Assembly (NCBI GenBank): GCA_029261135.1
Contig: JAJDBX010000074.1
Location: forward strand, 92,235-156,234
Direction of reading: 5' to 3'
Origin: Nitrospirota bacterium
Lineage (GTDB): Bacteria > Nitrospirota > Nitrospiria > SBBL01 > JAADHI01
Length of the DNA: 64,000 bases
Part shown: piece by piece, positions 42,099-64,000 of the stretch
How the letters are laid out: each line of letters starts with the position of its first letter
How positions within the stretch are numbered: position 1 is the stretch's first letter
The notes under the pieces: model-generated
What the model was told of the DNA's origin: nothing
Databases searched by the model: none
Seen by the model: the letters and a program-made list of their open reading frames with translations, nothing else
Program-made: the position numbers and the translations under genes

Positions 42099-42126
42099 CT
42101 AATAAATCAATAACTTACAACTTTTT

Positions 42127-44902: not shown

Positions 44903-44924
44903 GTTGGATGAATCTTGTAAGGGA

Positions 44925-49071: not shown

Positions 49072-49442
49072 GAGAATATCTTTCCGCAGTTACTACAGGG
49101 GCTGAAGGCGTGTTTCTCGTAATGCGGATTTATCCCGCATGAACATCTATAACGGCTCCTTAGATTCAAAACAAAACCGCACCCGAGACAATACGCGTCG
49201 GAGATGATTAGCTCTTGTAACCAACGCGAAACAGGTATCAGTCGAAAGGTTAGTACATGGAGAACGAAAAGAAATACCACCGCCTCGGCAAGTTGGTTGT
49301 CCTTGATTCGATTAGCTTCAGATGTCCAGACTATGCAGGTAATGAGAATTGCAAGATGGTAAAAAAAAGTGATGATACGCCGCGCTCCCCGTACACTGAA
49401 TATTTGAGGACTGTAACGAGTGGGTTGTTTTTGATATCTCAT
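49029..49442 (-). CDS. membrane protein with two TM helices and a C-terminal double zinc ribbon
   Basis: 137 aa with a GGAGG SD. Hydrophobic segments are IITFFYHLAILITCIVW and AVVFLFVLHVLTF. The C-terminus is CLGCG...CSCG...CSNCG...CPRC. Confidence 0.6.
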   Translation of the reverse strand: MRYQKQPTRYSPQIFSVRGARRIITFFYHLAILITCIVWTSEANRIKDNQLAEAVVFLFVLHVLTFRLIPVSRWLQELIISDAYCLGCGFVLNLRSRYRCSCGINPHYEKHAFSPCSNCGKIFSWMVCPRCDTTILI

Positions 49443-49443
49443 G

Positions 49444-49635
49444 CTAACGCCTCCATCTCATGCGTGGTCTTTGAGTCCTACCGCCACCTGATTTTTGACG
49501 AGTTCTTCCCCAAAGCAATAGAGCCAATCTCTTCACGGAAAAAACCATTGTCCTGTATGCAAGAGGACTCATTTTTTTCAAAACCGTAAGCGGGATGAAC
49601 AAAAAGACAAGCGCTGCTATACAAGTAACTAACAT
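49444..49635 (-). CDS. small single-pass membrane protein with an Arg-rich tail
   Basis: 63 aa. An AGGAGG lies 7 nt upstream of the ATG, inside the NYN gene end. N-terminal TM is MLVTCIAALVFLFIPLTVL. The stop lies 1 nt before the next ATG. Confidence 0.55.
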   Translation of the reverse strand: MLVTCIAALVFLFIPLTVLKKMSPLAYRTMVFSVKRLALLLWGRTRQKSGGGRTQRPRMRWRR

Positions 49636-50225
49636 CGGATTGCCTCCTTAATAGGTCGGAGGCAGTCAAGACCGATTTCAATGTTTGCAGTGATATGTGG
49701 TGAGGTTTTTGCGTTGAGCCGATACGCTGTTGAACCGGCAAGAGACAAGGTCGCAACCTTGCTTTGTGGCCTGATTCGTAAAATTGCTTCTGCGGTATCA
49801 GAAACGAGGTCTCCATCGCCACTTGCAAGAACAACCACGTCATAGTGGGATGAAATTGTGAGCGCTCCTGCGATGAAGCAGAATAGGTTATCGGCATTGC
49901 TTTTCCGCTCAGTGCCTTTATGGGTCTGTACTGTCTGTATGACTTTTGCGTGGGCCGTCCATCCGAGCTTTGAGAACTGTTCGCATCGTGCCGTTTCACG
50001 GGGCGGGTGAGCGAATATAAGGTAGCGAAATGCAGAACCCGTCGCCATGTCAATGGTCTGTCCTAAGCGTTCCCAGGAAATAGAGAAACCGAGATCTCGT
50101 GCTCCCGCATCAATGTTCTGAGCGTCTGAGATCACCAGCACATACTTGTCTCGTATGATTTCCAATGAGCCTGTTTCTTTTGCTATTTCTACGTTTTGCA
50201 TCCGATATTTTGTTTTGTAATTCAT
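49629..50225 (-). CDS. NYN-domain (LabA/DUF88-like, PIN-related) predicted ribonuclease
   Basis: 198 aa. Contains KYVLVISDAQNIDAG and NADNLFCFIAGALTISSHYDVVVLASGDGDLVSDTAEAI, the NYN acidic pattern. Confidence 0.7.
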   Translation of the reverse strand: MNYKTKYRMQNVEIAKETGSLEIIRDKYVLVISDAQNIDAGARDLGFSISWERLGQTIDMATGSAFRYLIFAHPPRETARCEQFSKLGWTAHAKVIQTVQTHKGTERKSNADNLFCFIAGALTISSHYDVVVLASGDGDLVSDTAEAILRIRPQSKVATLSLAGSTAYRLNAKTSPHITANIEIGLDCLRPIKEAIRC

Positions 50226-50268
50226 TGTTGTTCCTTTCTTTTCTTTGTTCTGTGAGGATTTATATAAA

Positions 50269-50298
50269 GGGAGAAGGGTTCTTTCGTTCCCTTCTCCC
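50269..50298 (-). terminator. hairpin plus U-tract between the vWA and NYN genes (terminator or attenuator)
   Basis: GGGAGAAGGG (50269-50278) and CCCTTCTCCC (50289-50298) form a perfect 10-bp stem with a 10-nt loop. The minus-strand transcript continues UUUAUAUAAAU. Confidence 0.45.
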
Positions 50299-50307
50299 TT
50301 CCAGCAT

Positions 50308-50949
50308 TCAACTGAACATCTTCTGTTTCATGAGAAGAAGATGGAGGATGGCTTCCTCAACGACCTGAACCTTGGTTTTATTTCCCATTGCCCATCCCAT
50401 TGAGGCAGAGAGGTCAATTACAAGCACGGTGGTTTCGGAGCGATGATGGAAACCGTTTGAGTTCCCGTTAGAGGAGAAGTGGGTAAGTGTATTGGTGAGT
50501 TCGCGGAGAGATTTTACCGGAACGAACTTGCCTCTATGTGTGGAAGCTGAAATTTTGCGGAGAGTTGATTCATCGAAGCTGTTCCCAAACCCGATGGTAT
50601 TGATATTAATATGGGATTTGTAAGCACGCTGAACCATAGGCCAAATTCCGCCAGGATTGACATTTGCTTCCCCATCTGAAAGAAGCCAGATCCTCCGCAA
50701 GATTCCACGTGGTGTTTTTTTGCACATCTCAATTCCAACGCGGAGTCCATCGGCGATATTTGTGCGACCCTTAACGTGTTTGTGGAGCCGTTGAGAACGT
50801 TCTTGCAGCCAATGCGCATGAGGCTCGGCAGGAAGAGCGATTTGAAATCCTTCTTCATTGAATCCAACGATGCTAATACGATCCGGTGCATGTACAACGT
50901 ACCGATGGTGTTGATTTGTTTTTTTGTTTTTAAATTTCAATCCAAACAT
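50308..50949 (-). CDS. von Willebrand factor A (vWA/MIDAS) domain protein with apparently permuted element order
   Basis: The track ORF runs to 51234. The ATG at 50949 (MFGLKF) has AAAGGAG 7 nt upstream. The middle of the domain is GRTNIADGLRVG, RRIWLLSDGEANV and ININTIGFG. The DxSxS start motif TTVLVIDLSASMG...KTKVQVVEEAILHLL lies at the extreme C-terminus. Confidence 0.7.
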   Translation of the reverse strand: MFGLKFKNKKTNQHHRYVVHAPDRISIVGFNEEGFQIALPAEPHAHWLQERSQRLHKHVKGRTNIADGLRVGIEMCKKTPRGILRRIWLLSDGEANVNPGGIWPMVQRAYKSHININTIGFGNSFDESTLRKISASTHRGKFVPVKSLRELTNTLTHFSSNGNSNGFHHRSETTVLVIDLSASMGWAMGNKTKVQVVEEAILHLLLMKQKMFS

Positions 50950-50968
50950 GATGTTCTCCTTTTTTGTG

Positions 50969-51011
50969 GAGTGAAGCAGAAACGGGCAGAAACCCCGTCT
51001 CTGCTTCACTC
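50969..51011 (-). promoter_or_regulatory. 18-bp RNA hairpin in the 71-nt spacer between the 88-aa gene and the vWA gene
   Basis: GAGTGAAGCAGAAACGGG (50969-50986) pairs with CCCGTCTCTGCTTCACTC (50994-51011) around a 7-nt loop. The single mismatch becomes a G-U pair only in the minus-strand transcript. No U-tract follows. Confidence 0.45.
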
Positions 51012-51020
51012 GGGAAATTG

Positions 51021-51287
51021 TTAATGATTGGTTCGAACGCCCCGCCACAGCTGAAATGGTCGTCTGTTTTGCCCGACGATCATCCCTTGACGGATGTTGC
51101 AGGCCCCGTGCGGACATGCGTAAATGAAGAGAAAGCCATACCTCTGGTGAGGTACCGTCCCAATGTGCATCATCCGACACGGGAGCAGGTGCTTCATCCC
51201 GTTGTTGCAGAGGAGGGAAAGGCTTTCCATCCACCTTGGTTTATTTATGTTTCTTTGGTACCCATTTTGTTTTTTGAATAGAGCCAT
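51021..51287 (-). CDS. small basic Cys/His-containing protein, unknown function
   Basis: 88 aa. Near-ideal SD AAAGGAGGTAATC-ATG. C27, C37, C58 and C63 plus several His residues. First gene of the minus-strand operon. Confidence 0.5.
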   Translation of the reverse strand: MALFKKQNGYQRNINKPRWMESLSLLCNNGMKHLLPCRMMHIGTVPHQRYGFLFIYACPHGACNIRQGMIVGQNRRPFQLWRGVRTNH

Positions 51288-51448
51288 GATTACCTCCTTT
51301 TTGGTTTTCAGATGATCTCGTTATCATCTTGTCCGAGCATAATCTGGTTCGTCTTATATTCTCAATTTGAATAAATTCATCTAAAATAATATCCATATGA
51401 AGGATTACTTTTAGAAAAAAATCCTGAGAAAGATATAAGAAGAAAATG

Positions 51449-51476
51449 TTTCAGGTGGAAATATTTCCACCTGAAA
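51449..51476. promoter_or_regulatory. perfect 28-bp palindrome in a divergent intergenic region (candidate operator)
   Basis: TTTCAGGTGGAAAT|ATTTCCACCTGAAA is a 14+14 palindrome with no spacer. It lies 80 nt upstream of the ECF S-component ATG and 162 nt upstream of the 88-aa gene ATG. Confidence 0.45.
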
Positions 51477-51555
51477 TGGTTCCAATTGCTCACCCGGGTA
51501 TTTGTTTTGTAAAGTAAGTTAAAAGGATTGCTGAGATATATTTCACATAGGAGGA

Positions 51556-52146
51556 ATGATCATGAAAAGTAACAAGAAAATGTCAACCGCTGTCGTTGTA
51601 TTGATCCCGATTGCGGTGGGGATTAACCTGATTGGGGGAGTTATCGTCAATGCCTTAAAATTGCCAATCTTTCTGGACTCAATCGGCACTCTCATTGTAG
51701 GGATACTTGCTGGACCGTGGATAGGGGCACTTACGGGAATATTGTTTAACTTTGCTGGCGCGGTGATTATTGACCCGGTCTGGGCGTGGTACGCACCGAC
51801 TTCAGCCGTGCTTGGATTTTTAGGCGGATTTTTGGCGTCAAAAGGATTTTTCAAACGAAAATTATATATAGTTGCGCTTGGCGGCGTGTTGGCAGCGGTG
51901 CTTGCAACCATAGTTTCCGCGCCGATTTCGGTGTATGTTTTTGGCGGTGTGGCAGCTCAGGGGCAAGGAGTTATTACAACGTTTCTTGTGGGCATAGGAA
52001 AAAACCTCATGGAAGCGGTTCTGACCGCAGGCATAGTTTCCAACTTGGCGGATAAGGTTATTGTTTACGCGCTGGTCGGAGCACTTTTTGCCAATATTCC
52101 CAAACGTTTCGTTTCTCTTTTTCCTTATGCTAAGAAAACACTTTAG
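51556..52146 (+). CDS. ECF transporter S (substrate-capture) component, substrate unknown
   Basis: 196 aa with a GGAGG SD. About 6 G/A/V/I-rich TM helices. First in an S-T-A-A' gene order. Confidence 0.65.
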   Translation: MIMKSNKKMSTAVVVLIPIAVGINLIGGVIVNALKLPIFLDSIGTLIVGILAGPWIGALTGILFNFAGAVIIDPVWAWYAPTSAVLGFLGGFLASKGFFKRKLYIVALGGVLAAVLATIVSAPISVYVFGGVAAQGQGVITTFLVGIGKNLMEAVLTAGIVSNLADKVIVYALVGALFANIPKRFVSLFPYAKKTL

Positions 52147-52163
52147 TGAGGATAGGGTAACAA

Positions 52164-52940
52164 ATGCAAAAAGGGTTTTATCAAAAAAAGGAAGGTATGC
52201 TGCACAAAATTCATCCGTTTACCAAAGCGGCTGTGGTTTTGTGGCTTGTTTTTACTTCTTTGCTTGTTGATCATCCTGTTTTTTCTATTGCCCTGTTTCT
52301 TGTATTTCTCCTTCCGTTAAGTGTTTTCTCTCGTATTGGTGGACTGCTTCTTAAATATTCTTTTGCTGTTACCATCCCTTTCTTTTTACTCCTTACGGTG
52401 CTGAACGGGTTTTTGTATCGTGGTGATGTGATATTGGAAGTCGGAAATTGGGTGCTGACTGAAGAAGGAGTTTTCGTTTCCCTTCGAATAGCGTCACGCA
52501 TCCTTATCTTCATCTCTGCCTTCCTACTCTACCTTATGAGTACTTCCGTATCTGCGCAGACTCAGGCAATTTTAGAAAAGGGGTTTTCACCAAAAATTGC
52601 CTACGTCCTGTCTGCAATTATTCTTTTTCTCCCCCTCATGCAGGAGAAAGTGGATATGATTTTGATAGCTCAACGGTCGCGCGGGGCAAAAATGGAAGGA
52701 ACGATATTAGAAAAATTGAAAGTCCTACCTTCTATTTTCACCCCTTTACTCCTCCAGTCCTTACTTGAGGTTGGAGAAAGGACGTTTGCGCTTGAAGTGA
52801 GGGGGTTTGACCGCGCGGAACCTCGTACCTTTATTTCAGACCTCAAAGACAGTGCCTTCCAACATTTACTCAGAACATTCTTGATATTTCTTGTTATTGT
52901 GGAGATAGGGTTATGGCTTTTCTTTCGATTCAAAACTTAA
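52164..52940 (+). CDS. ECF transporter transmembrane T component (EcfT/CbiQ family)
   Basis: 258 aa, polytopic. Conserved C-terminal AQRSRG...ALEVRGF coupling-helix motifs. Confidence 0.75.
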   Translation: MQKGFYQKKEGMLHKIHPFTKAAVVLWLVFTSLLVDHPVFSIALFLVFLLPLSVFSRIGGLLLKYSFAVTIPFFLLLTVLNGFLYRGDVILEVGNWVLTEEGVFVSLRIASRILIFISAFLLYLMSTSVSAQTQAILEKGFSPKIAYVLSAIILFLPLMQEKVDMILIAQRSRGAKMEGTILEKLKVLPSIFTPLLLQSLLEVGERTFALEVRGFDRAEPRTFISDLKDSAFQHLLRTFLIFLVIVEIGLWLFFRFKT

Positions 52941-53755
52941 GCTACAGCTACCAGGACGGGTCATGTGCCTTGAGAAATATTGATATGGCTTTAGAAAAAG
53001 GAAAGTTTTATCTGCTAACCGGACCAACAGGTGCGGGAAAAACCACGTTGTGTTTAGTGCTTTCTGGCATCATCCCTCATATTCTTTCGGGCGAAATGGA
53101 AGGCGAACTTCGTCTTGATTCACTTGGGTCATTCTCTCAACGCTTACCCTCTGAATTGATGGGGCATATCGGAATAGTTTTTGATAAGCCCATTACTCAA
53201 TTGTCGGGAATTGAAGAAACGGTGTTTGAGGAGATTGCGTTTGGTTTGGAAAATCTCGGTGTGCCTCAAAAACAGATGCACGAACGTATCGAATCAATAC
53301 TCACCGACTTACGTTTGCAATCACTTAAAGAGCGCTCCCCGTTTTCTTTATCAGGAGGCGAACAACAGAAAGTGGCGATTGCATCAATTCTCGTTATGAA
53401 CCCAAAAGTGCTTATCTTGGATGAGCCGATATCACAATTAGATCCTCGCGGAAGAAGAGAGATTCTACACCTTTTGGGAACACTGAAAGAAAGAGGAGTA
53501 ACCATTCTTTGCGTGGAACACAAAATTGAAGAGGTCAGTGAATATGCCGACTATGTTTTTGTAATGGATAAAGGACAAGTCATTCTTGAGGGAGTCCCAC
53601 AAGAAGTGTTTGCAAGTGATGTTTTAGATGAATATCAAATCGGGACATCCATATATACCAAAGTCGCAAAAGAAGCGGTGAAAAGCGGTATCGTCCCACT
53701 CGGAGATTCCTATCCTGTTACTTTTAATGAAGCAAAAATATGGTTTGCGAGATAG
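52913..53755 (+). CDS. ECF transporter ATPase (EcfA)
   Basis: 280 aa. Walker A GPTGAGKTT, signature LSGGEQQKVAIA and Walker B LILDEP. Confidence 0.85.
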   Translation: MAFLSIQNLSYSYQDGSCALRNIDMALEKGKFYLLTGPTGAGKTTLCLVLSGIIPHILSGEMEGELRLDSLGSFSQRLPSELMGHIGIVFDKPITQLSGIEETVFEEIAFGLENLGVPQKQMHERIESILTDLRLQSLKERSPFSLSGGEQQKVAIASILVMNPKVLILDEPISQLDPRGRREILHLLGTLKERGVTILCVEHKIEEVSEYADYVFVMDKGQVILEGVPQEVFASDVLDEYQIGTSIYTKVAKEAVKSGIVPLGDSYPVTFNEAKIWFAR

Positions 53756-54564
53756 GTATGGACATAGATATCAAAGATCTGTGGTTTTCATATGACCAAA
53801 GTCGGAATGTACTCAGCAATATCAATGTTCACATACGCAGAGGAGAAAAAGTAGCCATTATGGGAGAAAATGGCGCGGGAAAAACGACTCTGGTAAAGCA
53901 CCTCAACGGCATTTTGAAACCCAAAAAGGGAAGCATCATGATTGGGGATGTGGATGCCATATCATCCAGAGTTTCCATATTGAGCAGGCAGGTAGGGTTT
54001 GCCTTTCAGAACCCCGATTCTCAGCTTTTTGAAAAGTCCGTTTGGGCGGAATTGATATTTGGTCCTCGAAACATCGGCATGGATAAAAAAAAGATCCAAA
54101 GTATTGCCATGGAAATTCTTGACCTGCTTGAATTGAAAGACCAGAAAAACTTCCACCCTCATGATCTAGGGTTGCCTCAAAGGAAACTTCTTTCCATCGG
54201 ATCAGTATTGACTATGGATACGCCCATTGTTGTCTTGGATGAACCAACATTAGGGCAGGATTATCAAGGGAAGCAAGTTGTTTCCCACTTGATTAGGTGG
54301 CTTGAAAAGAAAAACAAAACCATTATTTCCATATCGCATGATATTGATTTCTGTTGTGATTACTTTAATCGTTTCCTCATTATGACGGCAGGTGAGATTG
54401 TTTTTGATGGAAATACAGAGAATTTATTACGCGAAGAAGATCTCCTGACCAAGGCTCATTTATCACTTCCTCACTTAACTCGCCTTAGTAATGCTCTTTG
54501 TTTCAATAAACCTGTTGCGAACATGCAGGCTTTTCTGGTAAATTTCCTGAAAATCAAGAATTAA
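53740..54564 (+). CDS. ECF transporter ATPase (EcfA')
   Basis: 274 aa. Walker A GENGAGKTT and Walker B VVLDEPTLGQD. An alternative ATG at 53758 (MDIDIK) lies 2 nt after the upstream stop. Confidence 0.85.
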   Translation: MVCEIGMDIDIKDLWFSYDQSRNVLSNINVHIRRGEKVAIMGENGAGKTTLVKHLNGILKPKKGSIMIGDVDAISSRVSILSRQVGFAFQNPDSQLFEKSVWAELIFGPRNIGMDKKKIQSIAMEILDLLELKDQKNFHPHDLGLPQRKLLSIGSVLTMDTPIVVLDEPTLGQDYQGKQVVSHLIRWLEKKNKTIISISHDIDFCCDYFNRFLIMTAGEIVFDGNTENLLREEDLLTKAHLSLPHLTRLSNALCFNKPVANMQAFLVNFLKIKN

Positions 54565-54652
54565 CTAATCTAAATCTCTACCTCTTCGTAATATTTTTCC
54601 CATCTCAATCTCCCTATTCTGAGCAGTTTCATATAAACGTGAGGATTTTTAT

Positions 54653-55216
54653 ATGGATAAACTTGTCGATCTTTTATACGAAATAGGGATACTTAAAAGA
54701 GTAAAGCGAAGCGGTTGGTGGATCGCGGGTGTGAAAGATCCCGAAACCGTGGCTGAACATTCATTTCGGGCAACAATTATCGGATATATGTTGGCAATGT
54801 TGGAAGGTATAGATTCTAACAAAGTTGTCAAAATGTGCCTCTTGCATGATATTGAGGAAAGCCGTCTTACTGATATTAACAAAATCACATCCGAATATAT
54901 TGACAAAAAACAGATGAAACAGGAGGCTATATATGACCAGGTTTCTGGTCTCCCTTCTCCTATAAAAGAAGAGTTTCTCAATCTGGTTGAGGAGTTTACC
55001 GAACAAAAGACTTCCGAAGCACAACTTGCCAGAGACGCTGATTTACTTGAATGCGCTATCCAGGCAAAGGAATATATCGAGTCAGGACATGAAAGTGCAC
55101 GGGACTGGATTGTAAATATCCGGGGCCTTCTGAAAAATGAAGTATCAAAAAATATGTTAAAAACCATTGAAGAGACCTCTTCTCAGCAGTGGTGGCAAGG
55201 ACTGAAAAAATTGTAG
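54653..55216 (+). CDS. HD_3-family phosphohydrolase (YfbR-like 5'-deoxynucleotidase family)
   Basis: 187 aa. Contains KRSGWWIAGVKDPETVAEHSFRA, LLHDIEESRLTDI and ARDADLLE. Confidence 0.75.
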   Translation: MDKLVDLLYEIGILKRVKRSGWWIAGVKDPETVAEHSFRATIIGYMLAMLEGIDSNKVVKMCLLHDIEESRLTDINKITSEYIDKKQMKQEAIYDQVSGLPSPIKEEFLNLVEEFTEQKTSEAQLARDADLLECAIQAKEYIESGHESARDWIVNIRGLLKNEVSKNMLKTIEETSSQQWWQGLKKL

Positions 55217-55224
55217 GAATCTTT

Positions 55225-56517
55225 ATGGTGGATACGGTTGTAAGCAAGCATGATAGGGAGGTTATCGATGCATTTTTGAGAAAGTGCTTTCCTGTGCTGT
55301 ATGACAAACTCAGGAATTCATTCGAATACCTTGAATTTAAACAAGGTGATCCACCAATATTATCATCAGGAAAGGAAAGCGATGGTAGCTTATACATTGT
55401 CTTTAAAGGACCGGTAGAGGTAAGGACTGACAAGCTTCATGTCCCTCTACATTGTGGCAATATTTTTGGGGAATTTGAAGAAATAGGAGAGCTGTATGAG
55501 GCTGATGTTATTGCGGGAAATAGCCAAAAAGATCCTGATATTGATTTTTTTCTTGAGTGGAATATACCTGAACTTGGAATAGGGAAAAGTAACAATGTCA
55601 TTGTAATAAAGGCAAGCCCGGATGTAATAAAAAAAATAAAAGAAGACATAATTTTCTGGCGGGAACTTTGTAAATTAAAAAGTCAAAAGATCAAACGCAT
55701 TCAATGGCATTATTTTATTCTTAGAGAGTCTGAAATAAAGGACAAATTAAAGAGCTTAATCAAATATTCCTCCGATTTAGGCGATCATGCTACAGGTATT
55801 ACAGATTGTGGTGATGGATGGAAGTTGGGCATTGGTATAAAAATATTGGCAAAATTTATAGGTGCAAAACACAAAAAAAGAACAGAAAAAATTATAGAAG
55901 ACGAATGGAAAGGTAAAATAGAGAATAGCTCAATTTTTATTCCGAAGGAAGCGATGAATCCTGTACCGGAAGGTTCAGTTATTTTGTCAGGTTCCTATTC
56001 TAGTAATCCATCAGTTTTTTTAAACGTACAACTTACAACACACAAAAATATTAATGCTGATGAAGACAAAATAACTTTTAAAACGCCAAAAATGAATAAA
56101 GATGGCTTTAAAGACCTTAACTGGTATCCAGAAGATATAGTCGCTATCTTTCCAAATGGTGGGTCAGGCTATAAGCCTATTGAATATAAAGGTAAGTGCA
56201 GTTACCTGAAAATACCGAAACATAGGAACGAAATCAGAGAACTTCTCCTGGCAAAAATTGGCATTTCTGGAGAAGTGATATTTTTATATCCCTGCCTTAA
56301 TGATGAGACAAGTTTGTCTGAATACAAGTGTGTAAAGGGCAGTCTTATTGATGAAGCAGAAGTTGAAAGTATGGCAGAGAATAAAAAAAAGAAGACAAAA
56401 AATATTTTCTCCTGGTTTGGAATATCAATAAAAACTTCATCTCAGCACTTTGCCTTTATTAATTTAATGAATGTCGATTATGTCATTTGCGATCAGAAAT
56501 TGTATCGAGCAAGGTAA
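55225..56517 (+). CDS. hypothetical protein with a possible N-terminal cNMP-binding-like barrel
   Basis: The track ORF starts at 55189, inside the HD gene. An ATG at 55225 lies 8 nt after the HD stop. LYIVFKGPVEVRTD...CGNIFGEFEE...ADVIAG weakly resembles a cyclic-nucleotide-binding fold. The rest is unrecognised, and the DNA is very AT-rich. Confidence 0.4.
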   Translation: MVDTVVSKHDREVIDAFLRKCFPVLYDKLRNSFEYLEFKQGDPPILSSGKESDGSLYIVFKGPVEVRTDKLHVPLHCGNIFGEFEEIGELYEADVIAGNSQKDPDIDFFLEWNIPELGIGKSNNVIVIKASPDVIKKIKEDIIFWRELCKLKSQKIKRIQWHYFILRESEIKDKLKSLIKYSSDLGDHATGITDCGDGWKLGIGIKILAKFIGAKHKKRTEKIIEDEWKGKIENSSIFIPKEAMNPVPEGSVILSGSYSSNPSVFLNVQLTTHKNINADEDKITFKTPKMNKDGFKDLNWYPEDIVAIFPNGGSGYKPIEYKGKCSYLKIPKHRNEIRELLLAKIGISGEVIFLYPCLNDETSLSEYKCVKGSLIDEAEVESMAENKKKKTKNIFSWFGISIKTSSQHFAFINLMNVDYVICDQKLYRAR

Positions 56518-56605
56518 GAAATTGAGTTTTTATATTAAAGTTTAAGGATTGATTCATATTCCCATTTCTCAATTAAGAAGACCATTGTCATTATTTAGTT
56601 ATAGT

Positions 56606-56645
56606 GCGAATAAAAAAGGGAGAAGATCAATCTTCTCCCTTTCAA
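56606..56645. terminator. bidirectional intrinsic terminator between convergent genes
   Basis: GGGAGAAGA (56618-56626) and TCTTCTCCC (56631-56639) flank a 4-nt loop. A-run upstream and T-run downstream, so the minus transcript ends UUUUUUAUU. Confidence 0.6.
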
Positions 56646-56664
56646 ATACAAGTAATGGTTTAGT

Positions 56665-57141
56665 TTAGTGTTTCTTTGATTCCGGCTTTGCTTCAAGACA
56701 AATTCTGTGAATATAGGGGACTGTCCTCATATCTATTACATCCTCAGGTTCTCCGTATTTTCTCAAAAAACGTTCGAGTAAAAGTAATCCACCACCACAG
56801 TTTGGTTTGATGATAACGCCATCCCTTCTTAAGCATTTCCTTTTTGTTGTTCTCTCATTAAACTCAATGAGATGATATTTCCCATCCCTCTTACTATCAC
56901 GTTCACCCAAGTATTCACTCTGTTTGAAGGCTAAAATATCAGATGCAAGACGGATACAATCTTTACATTGAGTCAAATGCCGCATCTCTCTTCTGTTAAG
57001 GTGTCGTCTGGATTTGTCATAGAGTATATCCACGATTTCCTCCGGGGAAAGATGAATTCTTACGATTGAGCTGAGAAATTCCTGGCTTTTAAATATTTCT
57101 TTGACATTCTCTTTCGAAAACATATTTTCATCAATAATCAT
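56665..57141 (-). CDS. hypothetical protein with an Hx3Cx2C (zinc anti-sigma-like) motif
   Basis: 158 aa with a GGAGAGG SD. Contains RHLTQCKDC, which fits Hx3Cx2C. No adjacent sigma factor. Confidence 0.4.
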   Translation of the reverse strand: MIIDENMFSKENVKEIFKSQEFLSSIVRIHLSPEEIVDILYDKSRRHLNRREMRHLTQCKDCIRLASDILAFKQSEYLGERDSKRDGKYHLIEFNERTTKRKCLRRDGVIIKPNCGGGLLLLERFLRKYGEPEDVIDMRTVPYIHRICLEAKPESKKH

Positions 57142-57287
57142 GGCACCTCTCCTTGTTAAGGGTTACATCTTCCCAAAAGCTCATTCTTTCGAGAAAATAG
57201 CCCTCAACAAAGAGGCGGTGAGAACATCATGTTTTTGTGAAAGTGCTTGAAGTTTTTTCAGCAAATCCCCTGAATAAATACTCCTAT

Positions 57288-57316
57288 ATAGTATATTAAA
57301 TATCGTATTTTGTCAA
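57288..57316 (-). promoter_or_regulatory. candidate sigma70-type promoter for the 158-aa gene
   Basis: On the minus strand: TTGACA (57316-57311), a 17-nt spacer, then TACTAT (57293-57288). Confidence 0.35.
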
Positions 57317-57332
57317 GTGTGAGTAGGGACAA

Positions 57333-58505
57333 TCATCCAGGTAATGTATCTGCACTGAAGGGTTCTGAGGGCATCCCGTCGATCATTAATTTTAGGTATA
57401 TCCGGTAATTAGGGAGCCGTATGAGGTCTCCGGCTGAAAAAGTCGGGTAGAATTCTTTTTCCAACACTTCCGCATCAGAAAGACCGAGCCGAAACGAAAT
57501 AATCGTTCCGGCATTACCCAAGATCGCATCTCGAATCTGAGGGTCAAGTTGTGAGAGATATTGATGTGCCAATACCATCCCTACCCTGTATTTACGCAGT
57601 TCCGAAAGCATGTTTGCCAGACTGAGCGTTGTGAAACTTTGGAACTCATCCAGGTAGATAAAAAAGTCACGACGGCTCTCTTCCGGCACCTCTGCCCGTT
57701 TGAAGGCGGCAAGACCCAAGCTGGTCACGAGTAGTGATCCGAGAAGGGTTGTCGCATCTTCTCCAATTTTTCCCTTGGATAAATTGACGAGCAATATCTT
57801 TCCTTCATCCATGATCTTTCTCAGATCAAACGAGCTTTTAGGTTGTGACAGGATGCCCGAAAGACGCGGGTTTGCTAGAAACGCCCCTACCTTGTTTTGT
57901 ATTGGCGCGATGGCCTCTTGCCGGAAGCGAGCCGTGTAGCTTTCAAATTCTCGCATCCAGAACCCCCTTACTTGCGGATTACTTACCCTTGCGGCCACAT
58001 TTTTTCTGTAGGCGGCATCTTCCAAAAGTCTCAAGATATCTGACAAGGTCGCTTGGGGCTGTTCAAGCAAAGCCAGAAGCGCATTTCTTAAAATATGTTC
58101 CAGACGCGGCCCCCAAAAATCGGGCCAGAGTTTTTTGAAGGTCTCCAGAAGCCCGGAAGCCGCCAGCGCTATTCGTTCAGGGGGTACACGTTCAAGAGGG
58201 TTAAAAAAGAGCTGTTGTGTGTTATTTGGAATATCAAAATGGATCAGATCCTTTTTCCGATGATCGGGCAGGGTCGTCATGACCTTCTCAATAAGATCCC
58301 CGTGAGGATCAAGGAGCGCAAATCCATTTCCTGATTCAAGATCACGTCGCATCATAGTTTCCATTAAAGTCGATTTTCCTGTGCCTGTTTTTCCAATGAT
58401 GTAGGTATGAGAGTGTCTGTCTATGTGTTTAATCCCAAAAAGCTTTTTCTCTGTGCGGAAGTTTGTCTTGGCAAAATATGTTACAGGGTTGTCGGATCGT
58501 GGCAT
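57333..58505 (-). CDS. stand-alone TraD/VirD4/TrwB-type P-loop ATPase (paralog of the 986-aa protein core)
   Basis: 390 aa. Walker A GKTGTGKST, Walker B FFIYLDEFQSF and RKYRVGMVLAHQ. Colinear with residues ~385-760 of the 986-aa protein (DPxGD, WGPRxExILR, GKIxxxNxSKG, GED). No TM segment. Confidence 0.7.
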   Translation of the reverse strand: MPRSDNPVTYFAKTNFRTEKKLFGIKHIDRHSHTYIIGKTGTGKSTLMETMMRRDLESGNGFALLDPHGDLIEKVMTTLPDHRKKDLIHFDIPNNTQQLFFNPLERVPPERIALAASGLLETFKKLWPDFWGPRLEHILRNALLALLEQPQATLSDILRLLEDAAYRKNVAARVSNPQVRGFWMREFESYTARFRQEAIAPIQNKVGAFLANPRLSGILSQPKSSFDLRKIMDEGKILLVNLSKGKIGEDATTLLGSLLVTSLGLAAFKRAEVPEESRRDFFIYLDEFQSFTTLSLANMLSELRKYRVGMVLAHQYLSQLDPQIRDAILGNAGTIISFRLGLSDAEVLEKEFYPTFSAGDLIRLPNYRIYLKLMIDGMPSEPFSADTLPG

Positions 58506-58652
58506 TTCTTCATGATGAAGGCTTTAGCCTCATGTTCAAAGAACGGTAAGTTGTCCTATAGCCATAGAACCCCTTCCTTTCTGTTTCCACCTGTTCACAT
58601 AAAGTAGACATGTTCTTTAAAAAAACATGAATCCCATAAAAGGAGATCTGCG

Positions 58653-59495
58653 ATGGCACAGCAAGAACTTGAAAGAAAAAAGGACAGAGTTGGAACTCAA
58701 CTCCTGATCATTTCCAAGGTTGGAAATGGGTTCCGGGTTTATTCCCCGGAATCTCCGGGGCAGTCATATATTGTGGGTTGCGGTCATAAAGGGCCGACCT
58801 GCACTTGTCCCGATTTTCAAACCCGCAATGGCGATCCGAAACAGCGATGTAGTCATATCATCGCCGTAAGAGAGCAAGTGGGGGAGTTAGAAGACATCTT
58901 TCCTCAAACGCAAGCGGAGCACCAAACCGGTGAGCAGGTGCAACAAGCCGACTCAACGGTTGCGCATCAGGGAACACAGATGCACATCAAACGAAGCGTC
59001 AGTCCGGATGGACGGATCGACTCGTTTTCGGTTTCCTTTTCCTGTGGCGTGGACATGAAGACAGTGAACGAGCTTGTCATTCATGCCACAAAGATGCTTC
59101 AGATCCAGTCTGTGATTGTCGGAAGCTTCTTGCAGAAAAAAACCAAGGAGAATGGTCAAACGACAACCAAGCCGCAAGAAACAAACGGTGTAGTACCAGC
59201 CAAAATGCTCACCATCGGCGGAATGCCGGGGAAATGGGGACAGATGCTTTTTATTAACGTGAAAGTAGATGGAATTGGCAAAGTCTTAAAGCTCTTCGGG
59301 AGCGTGAAGCAACTTGAAGGCCATTTGAGAGACTCCAACTTTCCACACCTGGCTCCGACGAGCATCAGAGAGGGAACTCGTTTAAATCACCCCTGCCGGG
59401 TCACGACCAAACCGAGCAGTGATGGAAAGTATCTGAATATCATCAAGGTCTTTCCGCTTGAACAACAAAATGGACAGGGGAGGAACGGATCATGA
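58653..59495 (+). CDS. SWIM zinc-finger protein
   Basis: 280 aa with an AGGAG SD. CTCPDFQTRNGDPKQRCSHIIAV fits the CxCxnCxH SWIM signature. The C-terminal ~170 aa are unrecognised. Confidence 0.6.
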   Translation: MAQQELERKKDRVGTQLLIISKVGNGFRVYSPESPGQSYIVGCGHKGPTCTCPDFQTRNGDPKQRCSHIIAVREQVGELEDIFPQTQAEHQTGEQVQQADSTVAHQGTQMHIKRSVSPDGRIDSFSVSFSCGVDMKTVNELVIHATKMLQIQSVIVGSFLQKKTKENGQTTTKPQETNGVVPAKMLTIGGMPGKWGQMLFINVKVDGIGKVLKLFGSVKQLEGHLRDSNFPHLAPTSIREGTRLNHPCRVTTKPSSDGKYLNIIKVFPLEQQNGQGRNGS

Positions 59496-60307
59496 GCGAA
59501 GTCATTACGGAGGAAAGTAAAGAACGGGCGGCAATAAAAAAAAGCCCCCATTACTCATACTCCAGTACGAATAAGTATCTCCTCTGCCCAGAGCAGTACC
59601 GCCTCTATTACATTGAACAACTGAGACCCAAGATTCAATCTGCCAATTTGGTCTTTGGAAAGGTCATACATCGGGTCTTGGAGCATCTCGTCATCACAGG
59701 GATAGATCCGGTGAAGTTCTTTGTGGGTGAGTGGGATAAGCTCAAAGAGGTTCCTTTGCGATACAGCAAAAAGGAGTCATGGGAAAAGCTCAGTGGTATT
59801 GGAGAAGGACTTCTTCGGAAGTTTCAAGAAGAGGCACTTCCCAAGTTAGGGAAGGTTGAGGCGACGGAAAAGCCGTTTGAGTTCAAGGTCACTGGTTTGC
59901 CCCTCCCGTTTATCGGGTTTATGGATCTCATTGCTGAGATCGAAAACAAAAGGACGGTAGTTGACTACAAGACCTCTGCTTCGTCATATGGATACTATGA
60001 GGTGGCTCTCTCAGACCAACTCACCGCCTACCAGCTTGCAGAGCCGGATGTGGAACAGGCGGCATTTTGTGTCTTGGTCAAAACAAAGACACCCAAGATC
60101 GAGTGGCATTTCAGCAGGAGGGAGCCAGAAGCACTGATTGCGTATATCGAAAAGCTTGAGTTTGTTTCTGCGCAGATAGAGGCCGGGAATTTCTACAAGC
60201 GGCCTGGCATGTGGTGCAGTTATTGTGACTACCTAATGGTCTGCATGGGAAACAAGAAAAAAGTACAAGAGACATTGGTGCAGATTAGTCCCAATACCTC
60301 TTCATAG
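59492..60307 (+). CDS. PD-(D/E)xK nuclease of the Cas4/RecB-exonuclease type
   Basis: 271 aa. The ATG overlaps the SWIM gene stop (ATGA). Contains GFMDLIAEIENKRTVVDYKTS (D...DxK), an N-terminal Cys (YLLCPEQY) and a C-terminal CSYCDYLMVC, the Cas4-like Fe-S cysteine pattern. Confidence 0.65.
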   Translation: MSEVITEESKERAAIKKSPHYSYSSTNKYLLCPEQYRLYYIEQLRPKIQSANLVFGKVIHRVLEHLVITGIDPVKFFVGEWDKLKEVPLRYSKKESWEKLSGIGEGLLRKFQEEALPKLGKVEATEKPFEFKVTGLPLPFIGFMDLIAEIENKRTVVDYKTSASSYGYYEVALSDQLTAYQLAEPDVEQAAFCVLVKTKTPKIEWHFSRREPEALIAYIEKLEFVSAQIEAGNFYKRPGMWCSYCDYLMVCMGNKKKVQETLVQISPNTSS

Positions 60308-60314
60308 AAAAACG

Positions 60315-60346
60315 AAGAGTCGGAATATATCCGGCTCTTTTTCTTT
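60315..60346 (+). terminator. intrinsic terminator after the Cas4-like gene
   Basis: AAGAGTCGG (60315-60323) pairs with CCGGCTCTT (60331-60339), with one G-U pair and a 7-nt loop. It is followed by TTTTCTTT. Confidence 0.6.
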
Positions 60347-60500: not shown

Positions 60501-62933
60501 TTAAAGGTTAATTTTATTTAAGCTGTGCGAAAAAACTTCATTTTTCGATTTCTCTAGCAGAATATCTTTTAAACCCTCCCAGTATTCTTTTATAACAGAA
60601 CGGGAAATTTCTGAGAGAATTTCATAGGCAAGCGCTGATTCAAATTTTAACCACTTTTCGCTCATTATTATCTGAGTTCTTGATGAATTTAGATCCAAAT
60701 CCATCGTGCCACAAATATCGACAATCAAAAGAATGGGTAATGGCCAGACCAAACTCACTTGGTTTTTTTGCATAGACCATGATTCAGGGAACAAGCTTGA
60801 AGGGACTTCAATGCCATGTAGGGAAATTCGAGATTTAGAGTGTACAAGGCGGCTGGAAGAATCTGATGAATCAATCCCGCCATCCTCATCAATAGTGATT
60901 GATGTTGTATCTAAACTAATTTCTTTTCCACTTAATCTAATTGCTTTCTCAAGATCATAGTTTTCATCGTCAATGGTAACGGATTTTTTCGTCATAGAAA
61001 TTTGACCTGTAGGGATTCCATGGCTTTCTAAAACAGCTACAACGGCAGAGCCAACGAATCCGACATCAGGATTATTTAACTCAACAGAAAACTCTCGGAT
61101 ATTATCATGTTCATCCCATGAATAATTTTTCAACGATGATGCTTTCAATTCCTTAAAGCTATTTTCGTCTCTAGTTTTCTTCTTAGACTTGCTTTCAATA
61201 GAAATCTTGAATGAAGGATTTGGGACGACATTTTCAACCGACTGAATGAATTGCTCTTCATCCATTTTCTTCCAAGGGTTTTGCTGCACTCTCAAAAAGA
61301 GTTTTGTCGTAGTTCCAGGTGTTTTCCTTTGGCCGGGCTTTATCCAAAAGATACTTTCTTGACCTTCTATGGTCAGGTTCAGTGGATCACTTGACTCATG
61401 AGGTTCATAAACCTTTCGTGTATCGACATCCACCGTGTCAGCAACCATGAAGCATGACAGAATACCAATGCCAAATCTTGACGTTGGCGTAAACTTTGCC
61501 TTAGATTGTGATTTTAGATCATAGAAAGCAGAAGATTTATAAAACGATGATCCAACTTTCGAGTAATAATTATCGATAACGTGTTGATCCATTCCAATCC
61601 CGTTATCCTCAACTTCAAGTATATCCTCATTATCAACAGTGTAATATTTAACTTTAATTTCGGGATCGTAGGAATTCCCCCAGCTCATCTCCATAGCTTT
61701 TCGTAATAAACAGGCATCAATGGAATTCTGTAACAATTCCCGTAACGCAACCTCTGGATCACCATATAATTTTGTACCCATTAGTAAGTCAATAACCTGA
61801 TTTTTACTTAAGTTAAATTGCGTCTCTCTGTACAAAAATTCTGGCTTTCCACCTATCATTTTCTTTGTTTCGATTTTTGAACGATTAACTTTGAAAGGAA
61901 TTTTAATCGTCAAATTGCGGTTAGAATTCTTATTATATTCATTTAGAGTCGAAAAGATGTTATTGCAGGCGCTTAGTTCCTGATCGATAACATCACAAAA
62001 TGCGTTTATGGATGATTGAATTGCAGGATGCGAGCACTTTGCATGAAATTGAATAAGGTTAGGACTGATAGTCCAAGCTTCAACAGATCTATGTTTATTC
62101 CATTCTTGAATAGATATAGGATGCCTTACAAAAAGGTGTGAGAATAGAATAGAGGGGGTTCGTTTGGCATCAAAATCAAGGAGATCAGCTAATCGTAGTA
62201 TAGCTGCGACCATTGGCAAGCATGCGAATGTATCAGGCCCACAAAGATAATTTTGGTCTAATTCAAGTACCTTCAGTGCATCTTCGTTATGACTAAAACA
62301 GATGCTGGCGAATTCAACTGTAAGGTCGGCATCCCTGTAACAAATTTTATTAACCCAGTCTCTCTGTATTACTTCACGCGCTCGGTCTGCATGAGTAATT
62401 CTAATGTAGTCAGAGATAAGATAATTCTTTGCCAATTCTGTTGCGCTGGCATTACCTTGCTGAATATAAGAGTTAATTTGATCTATTTGATCTGGTCGGG
62501 CAGCAGAAAACCGCTGAAATAGTTCAAACTCTTTTTCTTCGCGCTCATTTGTAAATTCAGGTTCTGTATCAAAATATTTTTTCCAAGCCTGAACGTCTGC
62601 TTCATCAGGTGCCATTCCTATGTCATGGAAAAAAGCGCTTAGAATAAGAAGCATAAGTTCAGGAACAGAAAGTTCTTCAATCTGCTCAGGGGATAGCAGC
62701 CGTTCCATTAACGCCAATACACGGAACAGGTGGTCACCATCATGAAGTGTAAACTCCCCCATATGCTTCAGGATAGTTTTTGTCCTTTGGAATGCATAGA
62801 AGGTCGCATCATTTATAAGCGTTAGCACGTGGCTCCCCGCAGGATCATTGTCACATTTCTCTTTTAATACGATAAATATATAGCTTTTTGCTAAGCGCGT
62901 CTGTGTTTCAGCATGCCAGTCGTCGTAAAGCAT
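60501..62933 (-). CDS. HD-domain phosphohydrolase fused to an Hsp90/GHKL-type ATPase
   Basis: 810 aa. The N-terminal HD is GDHLFRVLALMERLL...SAFFHDIGMAPDE. The C-terminal Bergerat fold is ALRELLQNSIDA, EVEDNGIGMD and SRFGIGILSCFMVADTVDVDTR, which resembles HtpG's FGVGFYSAF.VAD block. Confidence 0.7.
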   Translation of the reverse strand: MLYDDWHAETQTRLAKSYIFIVLKEKCDNDPAGSHVLTLINDATFYAFQRTKTILKHMGEFTLHDGDHLFRVLALMERLLSPEQIEELSVPELMLLILSAFFHDIGMAPDEADVQAWKKYFDTEPEFTNEREEKEFELFQRFSAARPDQIDQINSYIQQGNASATELAKNYLISDYIRITHADRAREVIQRDWVNKICYRDADLTVEFASICFSHNEDALKVLELDQNYLCGPDTFACLPMVAAILRLADLLDFDAKRTPSILFSHLFVRHPISIQEWNKHRSVEAWTISPNLIQFHAKCSHPAIQSSINAFCDVIDQELSACNNIFSTLNEYNKNSNRNLTIKIPFKVNRSKIETKKMIGGKPEFLYRETQFNLSKNQVIDLLMGTKLYGDPEVALRELLQNSIDACLLRKAMEMSWGNSYDPEIKVKYYTVDNEDILEVEDNGIGMDQHVIDNYYSKVGSSFYKSSAFYDLKSQSKAKFTPTSRFGIGILSCFMVADTVDVDTRKVYEPHESSDPLNLTIEGQESIFWIKPGQRKTPGTTTKLFLRVQQNPWKKMDEEQFIQSVENVVPNPSFKISIESKSKKKTRDENSFKELKASSLKNYSWDEHDNIREFSVELNNPDVGFVGSAVVAVLESHGIPTGQISMTKKSVTIDDENYDLEKAIRLSGKEISLDTTSITIDEDGGIDSSDSSSRLVHSKSRISLHGIEVPSSLFPESWSMQKNQVSLVWPLPILLIVDICGTMDLDLNSSRTQIIMSEKWLKFESALAYEILSEISRSVIKEYWEGLKDILLEKSKNEVFSHSLNKINL

Positions 62934-62951
62934 TTTATTACTCCTATATTT

Positions 62952-64000
62952 TTACCTCTGACTTAGCGTCCGATACCATTTTCTCTGAGGTGGGTTCTGC
63001 GTATCATCATATTTAAAACACTCAACCAGATCATCGATGGATTGAAGCACACCAAGGAGAACATGGGCAGTGATAGGTGTCCCGCTTCCAGTTTCATAAT
63101 GACTTACATAATTTGCGATGATTGCAGGTGCGTGTCGATTACTAAAGTCCGTCTGTTGTTTCCCATCCAAGACAAGGCTATTAGCCTGAAGATGAAGGTT
63201 CAGAGTGTTTTTGATTGCGTCTAAAGCATTCCCTACGGTTCTATTGTCGCTCTTAATGGCATAGTCAGGTGGCACAAGTATTTTTACCTTGGAAATGATC
63301 TGCGATAACTGAAACTCAAGATATTGCCGTACTAAAGGCGCACCAACATCTATTTGTCCTGAAGATAGGTGGCCGTGTGCTAATGTCCTCAGGCGGAGTG
63401 CGTTTTGCTGATTGGCATACACCCTTCCAGTTGGCGCTGCTCCTTGAAGCTTTTGATGATACCAACCCGGCTCGCCATTAATTCGATCAAAATATTTTTC
63501 TAAAAGGGAGTCGTGGCTCAATACGATGAATTGCAGACCATCAGCATTGGTAGGGCATTGCAGTTTTGTTCTTAGTAATTCCATCAGAGCAAATTGATGG
63601 CCACCGTCAAAACTTGAAGTTATATCGTCAAGGATAACAAAGCGTGCTGAACCTGTTTGTGTTGCTGCAGCCGCAAGAAAGATTGAGGCAGCAACGGCAT
63701 TACGATAGCTTTCAGAAAGAACCGCCCTAGCGGAAATGCCATTTTCACCATAAAAATTTTCAAGATTGAGGTCAACATTTTCACTATTTGCGGCTCGAAC
63801 AAGTTGAGGCTTCATGTCAATGCCACCTCGCATTAGGTCTGTAAATATAGCCTGATAATCAGTCTGTATCTGCGCAATTCTCTGCGCGGACAATGCTCTT
63901 TCAGCTGACCCGACGGCTAACGAAGCACTTGTTATAAAGCTGCGCCAGCGTTCTCGCCAAGCATGATGCACTGATAATTTAGCCAACACTTTTTTGGCTG
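62952..64000 (-). CDS. ABC/SMC-like ATPase, C-terminal half only (N-terminus beyond the window)
   Basis: The frame stays open to the window edge (...AKKVLAKLSV). Signature-like LSESYRNAVAASIFLAAA, Walker B/D-loop ARFVILDDITSSFD and H-loop-like VLSHD. A ~180-aa C-terminal domain follows with RQYLE ... NYVSHYE. Confidence 0.6.
   Translation of the reverse strand, partial: AKKVLAKLSVHHAWRERWRSFITSASLAVGSAERALSAQRIAQIQTDYQAIFTDLMRGGIDMKPQLVRAANSENVDLNLENFYGENGISARAVLSESYRNAVAASIFLAAAATQTGSARFVILDDITSSFDGGHQFALMELLRTKLQCPTNADGLQFIVLSHDSLLEKYFDRINGEPGWYHQKLQGAAPTGRVYANQQNALRLRTLAHGHLSSGQIDVGAPLVRQYLEFQLSQIISKVKILVPPDYAIKSDNRTVGNALDAIKNTLNLHLQANSLVLDGKQQTDFSNRHAPAIIANYVSHYETGSGTPITAHVLLGVLQSIDDLVECFKYDDTQNPPQRKWYRTLSQR

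Follow-up and report, generated by a model that had tools for sequence, protein, structure and literature searches.

Transfer of DNA out of a bacterial cell does not always involve a type IV secretion system (T4SS). In Thermus thermophilus, DNA is donated through ICETh1 by the HerA-like ATPase TdtA and nucleases without a T4SS, the ATPase pushing the DNA out, and the element lies at a tRNA gene with an integrase and a PF01555 methylase (PMC5365140). In Streptomyces, the single pumping ATPase TraB transfers double-stranded DNA, again without a T4SS (PMC5365140). The nuclease of a transfer module can have a restriction-endonuclease fold, as in the MOBC relaxases (PMC6499999). Here we describe a 64,000-nucleotide stretch of a Nitrospirota contig (the window), in which a genomic island has one end at a tRNA-Gly gene and encodes a TrwB/TraD-like ATPase of 390 amino acids (aa), hereafter A, a divergent gene pair for a SWIM zinc-finger protein and a Cas4/RecB-type nuclease, and a 986-aa paralog of A, hereafter B; related loci in other genomes and metagenomes are designated L001, L002 and so on. 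A, the SWIM protein and the Cas4-like nuclease are a real recurring gene trio in many uncultured bacteria. At a probability of roughly 0.45, we favor the reading that A and B form the T4SS-independent DNA-processing and translocation backbone of an uncharacterised family of integrative elements.

The recurrence of the trio is apparent from its neighbourhoods in other genomes. A scan of species-representative genomes and metagenomes returned 160 loci, in all of which open reading frames (ORFs) were called and clustered, with the clusters then extended using profiles. The loci come from Acidobacteriota, Alpha- and Gammaproteobacteria, Bacteroidota, Verrucomicrobia, Gemmatimonadota, Planctomycetota and Patescibacteria. 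The initial annotation of this DNA had made synteny in other genomes a test of the trio, and the SWIM gene followed by the PD-(D/E)xK nuclease gene is indeed divergent from A in ~21 A-anchored loci, while two look-ups anchored on distant SWIM homologs both returned A divergent from SWIM and PDDEXK_1 genes. For distant loci, the single-sequence tblastn and phmmer searches for the SWIM protein and the nuclease have low sensitivity, and cluster-seeded profiles added few. Four layouts were distinguished. In one, the SWIM and nuclease genes diverge from A, which is followed by a small protein and a B of ~1000-1185 aa (L001-L004, L099, L105, L175 and others). In another, A, the small protein and B have no SWIM pair with them, and a serine recombinase gene frequently diverges directly from A; in 11 loci such a recombinase lies within 400 bp of A. 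A third has the genes for a 124-aa protein and a nuclease diverging from A, which is followed by a protein with two transmembrane (TM) segments. The fourth is found in Patescibacteria (L043-L084, for example L052 and L061), where relatives 48-51% identical to A are fused into longer proteins of 600-970 aa, one of them carrying a treble-clef zinc finger, and stand beside a second TrwB-like ATPase among the housekeeping genes for MnmA, a class II aminoacyl-tRNA synthetase and SecDF.

In the window, all four ORFs that the initial annotation had placed in this region are present with the boundaries it gave (Table 1), and both the ATGA by which the SWIM and nuclease genes overlap, read directly at 59492-59495, and the 147-nt spacer between A and the SWIM gene are as it had described them. 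Its proposal that A is colinear with the ATPase core of B is borne out by a BLASTP alignment of 316 aa at 38% identity (E = 4e-64), within which all of the shared blocks it had listed fall (DPxGD, WGPRxExILR, GKIxxxNxSKGxxGED, DEFQxF and RKYRV). Pfam TrwB_AAD_bind matches residues 30-321 of A at 45.8 bits (cutoff 20.5; 5e-12), phrog_5156 matches at 1e-50, and the top sequence match in the Protein Data Bank (PDB) is TrwB (3.7e-7). The Walker A motif of A is GKTGTGKST (residues 38-46; GGTGTGKTT in B) and Walker B is D286-E287, with G38-T46 and D286-E287 invariant. A hydropathy scan found no TM segment in A. Its N-terminus (residues 1-47) is hydrophilic and conserved among homologs, so the 390-aa start is correct and the public gene call (P0001), which is 343 aa long and begins at Met48, past Walker A, is too short. 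A stands apart from bona fide T4SS coupling proteins, with which the initial annotation had wanted it compared, as it is without a TM segment, has no T4SS genes in its contexts and scores far below the curated NCBIfam conjugation models (at best 44.3 bits against a cutoff of 250 for conju_CD1115, with 26.5 against 366 for SXT_TraD and 22.5 against 521 for TraD_Ftype).

The database relatives of A number at least 8000 proteins, all at E ≤ 0.001. Among the best 120, identity to A is 67-81% and length ~390-456 aa, and relatives in other phyla (e.g. Acidobacteriota and Verrucomicrobia) reach 61-67% identity. The best annotated relative, at 45% identity, is encoded on a Sulfitobacter plasmid ~1.3 kb from a serine recombinase and is labelled only 'type IV secretion system DNA-binding domain-containing protein'. 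A virus or satellite origin was considered and is unlikely, given that the 2.9 million viral contigs of IMG/VR contain only 4 relatives of A and that SPO1-like Bacillus phages contain only distant ones (26-28% identity); further distant relatives are found on non-mobilizable plasmids.

The two proteins encoded divergently from A are consistent with a role in DNA processing. In the SWIM protein, the CxC...CxH signature on which the initial annotation had based its assignment (C50, C52, C66 and H68) is invariant across 35 homologs, as is a KRSVSPDGRIDS block. Many homologs carry PF04434 and the L001 ortholog reaches 22.2 bits against a Pfam SWIM cutoff of 19.6; the window protein itself has no Pfam match at E ≤ 0.01. 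Its AlphaFold2 (AF2) model (pLDDT 78 overall and >90 in residues 181-268) consists of a beta domain at the N-terminus that contains the zinc finger, a highly conserved beta-hairpin and helix that contain the KRSVSPDGRIDS block, and a confident C-terminal barrel. Foldseek matched this barrel to PrgE of pCF10, the baculovirus single-stranded DNA-binding protein (SSB) LEF-3 and uS12 in the PDB (E ~1e-2, probability 0.98-1.0), and to phage DUF669/SSB proteins in BFVD (E 1e-4 to 3e-2). At these modest E-values, the C-terminal domain is predicted to be an SSB-like OB-fold that binds single-stranded DNA (ssDNA). The 271-aa partner can be assigned to the Cas4/RecB-type four-Cys nucleases, as the initial annotation had done, on the basis of its matches to PDDEXK_1 (5e-26) and to the phrog_69 exonuclease (3e-20), and of its RecB-type motifs (E, D, D/ExK and QxxxY) and C...CxxCx5C pattern. 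Of 30 family members, 26-29 share residues C32, C242, C245, C251, E126, D145, K160, Q176 and Y180, and H60 is also among the family-conserved residues. Identity as a CRISPR Cas4 was rejected, since the TIGR00372 equivalog model gives 31.9 bits against a cutoff of 65, the PADLOC Cas4 model is also below its cutoff and there is no cas context; the eight proteins scanned matched no other Cas model, and the other island genes include no cas family, CRISPR arrays not having been searched for. The spacer between the divergent genes contains an AAAGAAC motif that is invariant in an alignment of five loci (the window, L001, L002, L004 and L175) and an inverted pair, TTCAAAGAAC and GTTCTTTAAA, and a ribosome-binding site, AGGAG, precedes the SWIM start. 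This AAAGAAC inverted pair may be an operator or a processing site.

The relationship between A and B is central to how the trio is understood. The initial annotation had suggested that the trio might duplicate the large protein in a split or alternative form, an idea not supported by relatives that encode both. In these, the usual layout is A, a small membrane protein and B on one strand, often with cargo inserted between them, and the order of A, small TM protein and B is found across Acidobacteriota, Proteobacteria, Bacteroidota and Gemmatimonadota. B is downstream on the same strand in 10 of the 23 loci in which A is at least 60% identical and at least 6 kb of downstream sequence is available, and a large paralog is present anywhere in 17 of 53 loci that extend at least 8 kb on both sides. 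The window follows the canonical order on one strand, with A, 8.3 kb of cargo, the small membrane proteins p63 and p137, and B. L176 repeats this layout on the same strand (A, ~9 kb of cargo including a VWA gene, p68, p123 and B), and L175 also has A and cargo followed by small TM protein(s) and B. In a neighbour-joining tree of the ATPase domain (398 columns, 191 sequences), all small A proteins, including that of the window, form one clade with the fused Patescibacteria forms, and B-type domains lie elsewhere; the 986-aa protein belongs to a clade of 8 whose sister group comprises 19 partner-B proteins. Because A and B are encoded together on one strand and fall in separate clades, we read them as old paralog lineages that are partners rather than substitutes. 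A working idea that the clade of the 986-aa protein is solo and unrelated to A was softened, as L176 has A 9 kb upstream on the same strand.

The two halves of the window have different nearest relatives. A, the SWIM protein and the nuclease are 81%, 61% and 73% identical to their counterparts in L002, respectively, whereas B shares only 29-32% identity with its counterparts in the L002 group (~31% with that of L002 itself). Those counterparts are 48-64% identical among themselves; with another clade, of 956-969-aa proteins, B shares 41-45% identity. The window is thus a single backbone in layout and a mosaic in origin, because its A half and its B half match different sublineages. This bears on a further suggestion of the initial annotation, that the trio belongs to a second element nested in the island: the separate sublineages of the two halves agree with it, and the recurrence of the A, cargo, small membrane protein and B layout in L176 and L175 argues for one backbone.

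The domains that the initial annotation had recognized in B were also found. B consists of an N-domain identified as DUF8128 by precomputed annotation, an ATPase core, a winged helix-turn-helix (wHTH) at residues 783-855 that matches phrog_11046, and a C-terminal nuclease-like fold; the last 115 residues have an alpha-beta-beta-beta-alpha-beta topology that is consistent with a PD-(D/E)xK domain in the predicted structure. In a Foldseek search with the AF2 model of B (pLDDT 85), the top match was TrwK/VirB4 of R388 over ~850 columns (E 4e-16), but with a root-mean-square deviation of ~15 Å, followed by HerA and TrwB (TM-score 0.64). The NCBIfam VirB4_CagE model scores 23 bits on B against a cutoff of 643. 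Directly upstream of B are two unannotated small ORFs, p63 and p137, and the proteins in the corresponding place between A and B in relatives are likewise predicted TM proteins. In L170 and L176, a p137 homolog that retains every Cys is found at this position, homologs of p63 are found upstream of B in L169, L170, L172 and L176, and the order p63, p137 and B is kept in L170 and L176.

The genomic contexts point to mobile elements that lack a T4SS. A marker of mobile genetic elements (MGEs) is present in 50 of the 53 loci with at least 8 kb on each side (a large serine recombinase in 30 and a tyrosine integrase in 13), and serine or tyrosine recombinases are found in 37 of 54 related loci. Recurrent neighbours include ArdC, RadC, ParB_N, Replic_Relax, the replication initiator RPA, HTH regulators and orphan N6/N4 methylases. 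Replic_Relax occurs in only ~11 loci, and its apparent mutual exclusion with the PD-(D/E)xK nuclease was discarded, as the counts (1/13/7/32) are no different from chance. T4SS families were absent from the Pfam-annotated loci L001-L004, L169-L172 and L175-L177, from the Patescibacteria loci and from a random sample of 148 neighbours from 64 loci, and the annotated loci examined contain no VirB6/8/9/10, pilin or canonical relaxase families. Comparison of L001 and L004 is informative in this regard: their B proteins are 93% identical, and the nuclease, SWIM protein, A, a 173-aa membrane protein and B are constant, while the flanks and one insertion differ. Beside the nuclease gene, these two loci have peptidoglycan hydrolases of different families in the same place (M23 in L001 and SLT in L004). 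A/B looks like the constant backbone of integrating elements and behaves unlike cargo. L001 (19016-19570) and L002 (17770-18201) also contain short Mg_chelatase/Mg_chelatase_C (ComM-like) fragments at one end and a large serine recombinase at the other, an arrangement that suggests integration of these two elements into comM.

Together, these observations can be accommodated in a model in which the trio is half of a DNA-handling backbone. A would be the soluble core ATPase and B, with its DUF8128, wHTH and nuclease-like domains, the second one, with one or two small membrane proteins encoded upstream of B; in one sublineage, the divergent operon would add a SWIM/OB ssDNA-binding protein and a Cas4/RecB-type exonuclease. 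The element would be excised by its serine or tyrosine recombinase, and the nuclease and its ssDNA-binding partner would then nick or resect the element DNA. Hexameric ring ATPases would translocate the DNA, with the small TM proteins tethering B at the membrane and the wHTH of B recognising DNA, and the DNA would exit without a canonical T4SS, either directly or through a borrowed pore. In its most specific form, A, B and their membrane partners would be a minimal T4SS-independent DNA-export apparatus, with the SWIM/OB protein and the nuclease as a non-HUH 'relaxosome' in one lineage, that moves defence-laden islands between distant phyla, including Patescibacteria. We regard this specific form as somewhat unlikely.

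Several observations weigh against a transfer backbone. No relaxase, origin of transfer (oriT) or pore component was identified, and a peptidoglycan hydrolase was observed only in a pair of closely related loci. More than half of the A-bearing loci have no B within 6-10 kb, and the SWIM-nuclease pair is confined to the subclade in which A is at least ~60% identical, so any such machine would be modular, with A perhaps working by itself or together with host factors. The Foldseek matches of the SWIM protein to SSBs are weak (E 1e-2 to 1e-4). In the Patescibacteria loci, no recombinase was seen and there is no obvious MGE. Nearly all related loci come from metagenome bins, which makes element boundaries and host links uncertain. 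Finally, the module lies among defence genes, and sets of an ATPase plus a nuclease are typical of defence systems.

This last point leads to the main rival of a transfer backbone, namely that the genes are an anti-phage or anti-plasmid defence carried as island cargo, in which the ATPases load on and translocate along invader DNA, the SWIM/OB protein detects ssDNA or intermediates of replication, and the nuclease and the nuclease domain of B degrade the invader. The islands are rich in such genes: the variable genes of related loci mostly have defence or toxin functions (RES, Fic, PycTM, patatin, Multi_ubiq-ThiF, SMODS and AAA_15), the window carries an HD-CE/HATPase protein and an LmuB-like ATPase, and two DNA methyltransferases adjoin B. 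Known systems include HerA-type hexamers that act as scaffolds for nuclease or Sir2 effectors (PDB matches 8j4u, 8sub and 7es4), and PADLOC returned matches to mad8 (2.5e-19 for A and 1.4e-19 for B), HerA and Cas4. The mad8 matches do not favor a defence role because that profile is a generic P-loop model, built from HHpred/PDB alignments of generic ATPases; with the seven other mad genes absent as a set and only a weak mad3 match on an unrelated neighbour, membership in the MADS system, an eight-gene operon (mad1-mad8) with a methylase, a kinase and a specificity subunit among its products, was rejected. Beyond generic ATPase matches, no PADLOC system model matches the SWIM protein, B or the 158-aa protein encoded downstream of A. 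A is also unusually conserved, both among its best 120 relatives and across phyla, stays constant while its neighbours vary, and often abuts a recombinase. Its recurrent neighbours are of transfer or plasmid type (ArdC, ParB, Replic_Relax and RPA), and membrane-protein partners of B would be unexpected for a cytoplasmic nuclease system. We consider defence unlikely.

A different possibility, which we judge distinctly unlikely, is that no DNA is exported and that the module serves replication, recombination or maintenance of the excised element, with the exonuclease and SSB acting as a lambda-Red/RecET-like pair and the ATPases as a replicative helicase or an FtsK-like segregation or resolution motor. 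The phrog_69 exonuclease adjoining an OB/DUF669-like SSB does resemble phage recombination modules, but no single-strand annealing protein was found beside it. In L129 the gene immediately upstream of A is that for RPA, in L176 A is followed by a DnaG-like primase, the ATPase of B followed by a wHTH recalls the FtsK motor with its gamma domain, and the distant relatives on non-mobilizable plasmids and in SPO1-like phages would also fit. The TrwB/TraD/VirB4-like fold, however, belongs to pumping ATPases and is not known from replicative helicases; the dedicated TM partners, and the cell-wall hydrolase in two loci, point to the envelope; and the IMG/VR matches are as few as noted above. The least probable alternative considered concerns structure rather than function: two independent elements, one comprising the integrase, methyltransferases, B, p137 and p63 and the other A, the SWIM protein and the nuclease, would be stacked at tRNA-Gly, with ATPases that are functionally unrelated here. 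The disparate identities of the two halves, the patchy composition and the occurrence of B proteins of the window's clade without A within 8-10 kb in L169 and L170 would be explained by stacking. Set against it are the absence of an internal att repeat in the window, the single integrase, the position of A and B on the same strand in canonical order, and the layout shared with L176 and L175.

Table 1. Features of the window that are discussed in the text, with positions in the 64,000-nucleotide stretch.
Feature	Position	Strand	Basis or remark
A, soluble TrwB/TraD-like P-loop ATPase, 390 aa	57333-58505	-	Pfam, PHROG and PDB matches; no TM
SWIM zinc-finger and predicted OB-fold (SSB-like) protein, 280 aa	58653-59495	+	Invariant Cys/His; AF2 and Foldseek
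RecB/Cas4-type PD-(D/E)xK nuclease with four-Cys cluster, 271 aa	59492-60307	+	PDDEXK_1; conserved residues
Putative divergent control region between A and SWIM gene	58506-58652	.	147 nt
Inverted pair (repeat I3) in the spacer	58535-58544 / 58612-58621		
Terminator-like hairpin (11-bp stem and T run) ending the SWIM-nuclease operon	60314-60340	+	Consensus scan, pattern match only
B, 986 aa: DUF8128 N-domain, TrwB-like ATPase, wHTH, C-terminal PD-(D/E)xK-like fold	46111-49071	-	
p137, 2-TM protein with 8-Cys zinc ribbon, upstream of and overlapping B	49029-49442	-	TM prediction
p63, 1-TM mini-protein with SGGG/Arg-rich tail, upstream of p137	49444-49635	-	TM prediction
tRNA-Gly at island end	42027-42099	+	ARAGORN
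Tyrosine integrase abutting tRNA-Gly	42127-43341	-	Pfam
N6/N4 (PF01555) and C5 DNA methyltransferases, between integrase and B	43715-46076	-	Pfam
Variable cargo between B and A: NYN, VWA, ECF transporter (4 genes), HD_3, 442-aa and 158-aa orphans	49629-57141	.	
NYN and VWA proteins, between B operon and ECF transporter	49629-51234	-	
ECF transporter, complete with its S, T and two A components, and YfbR-like HD_3 5'-deoxynucleotidase	51556-55216	+	Cargo or host segment
442-aa ORF	55189-56517	+	No Pfam, NCBIfam, PHROGs or PADLOC match
158-aa orphan with Hx3Cx2C string	56665-57141	-	Outside conserved module; no family
810-aa HD-CE and HSP90/GHKL-type HATPase protein, then ABC/SMC-like ATPase fragment leaving the window	60501-63989	-	

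The remaining features of the island concern its border and its cargo (Table 1). Only one integrase is present in the window, and exact, 3-mismatch and blastn-short searches found no second copy of the tRNA-Gly 3' end within the 64 kb, so that the far end of the island may lie beyond position 64000. None of the cargo genes of the window is conserved beside A elsewhere. The cargo gap has a mixed composition, with GC content at third codon positions (GC3) of 0.30-0.47, and insertions are found at the same place between A and B in L004, L005, L036, L105, L175 and L176. In its behaviour, the gap between A and B is a hotspot for cargo. Close to the module, L001 and L175 too have NYN genes, and in L176 and L177 the cargo gap includes a VWA gene. 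The 442-aa ORF has the lowest GC3 of the region (0.30). On the other side of the trio, where GC3 is 0.34-0.36, the ATPase fragment beyond the 810-aa protein matches AAA_13 and, weakly, LmuB and PDC-S06; the genes at this end of the window are probably a separate conflict system that is carried as cargo.

The 158-aa protein stands apart from the module. The Hx3Cx2C string (RHLTQCKDC) that led the initial annotation to liken it to zinc anti-sigma (ZAS) factors is present, but the anti-sigma reading itself found no support and was rejected: the protein is an orphan without an anti-sigma domain match and is not a positional homolog of the 173-aa membrane protein that follows A in relatives, to which it is not homologous. 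It has no Pfam, NCBIfam, PHROG or PADLOC match, and Pfam scans of the island genes (42.1-64 kb) found no sigma-factor family. Among 1.84 billion representatives, only the protein itself and one repeat protein (P0264) were recovered. P0264, 599 aa long, is built from about ten almost identical units of 60 aa. Every unit aligns at 31% identity with residues 23-69 of the 158-aa protein, and P0264 may be a translated tandem DNA repeat.

The domains described here are all of known kinds. It is their arrangement, with two TrwB-like paralogs and TM mini-proteins, an optional SWIM/OB protein and nuclease, and no T4SS, that appears uncharacterised, and full-text literature searches found no paper describing the module. 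In current databases, it is labelled only DUF8128 or 'type IV secretion system DNA-binding domain-containing protein'. No transfer route is known for many genomic islands, those with defence systems among them, and the module could provide one. If it is a transfer engine, it would explain how islands spread without T4SS genes and would supply a marker gene for finding them, and if the export apparatus outlined above is real, conjugation-like transfer would gain a new mechanistic class. If the genes are instead a defence system, they would define a new type with two ATPases and two nucleases. In both cases the set of genes is well defined.

The A/B backbone can be compared with several known systems. 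With the type IV coupling proteins (TrwB/TraD/VirD4), A shares the P-loop and all-alpha domain core, and it differs in being without the N-terminal TM anchor, in missing the curated thresholds and in having no mating-pore genes nearby. VirB3 precedes VirB4, and the small membrane protein directly preceding B is comparable to this order. B differs from VirB4/TrwK and the coupling proteins by its extra wHTH and nuclease-like domain, and VirD4 and VirB4 are far less alike than A and B (~40% identity). The exonuclease and its partner share with Cas4/AddB/RecB nucleases and phage exonuclease-SSB modules the RecB motifs, the four Cys, matches to phage exonuclease PHROGs and an OB/SSB-like protein. 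The island partner is set apart from the phage modules by its N-terminal SWIM finger, which to our knowledge is not present in known SSBs, and by the lack of an annealing protein. The MOBC relaxases offer, by analogy only, a precedent for a PD-(D/E)xK-type enzyme that processes DNA in a transfer module. In TraB and FtsK, a pumping ATPase is followed by a wHTH as in B, whereas these proteins carry an N-terminal membrane domain of their own and fall within the FtsK branch, and Pfam FtsK_SpoIIIE scores are insignificant for the island ATPases. A further parallel, likened by description, is ICETh1, which is integrated at a tRNA 3' end, has a site-specific recombinase and transfers DNA with TdtA, the NurA nuclease, a restriction enzyme and an N4/N6 methylase. 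The window likewise combines a tRNA-Gly, an integrase, a PF01555 methylase with a C5 methylase, ATPases of the FtsK/HerA superfamily and nucleases without a T4SS. TdtA is HerA-type, with a HAS barrel and a NurA partner, whereas the island has two ATPases, both TrwB-like, and its nucleases are of the PD-(D/E)xK type.

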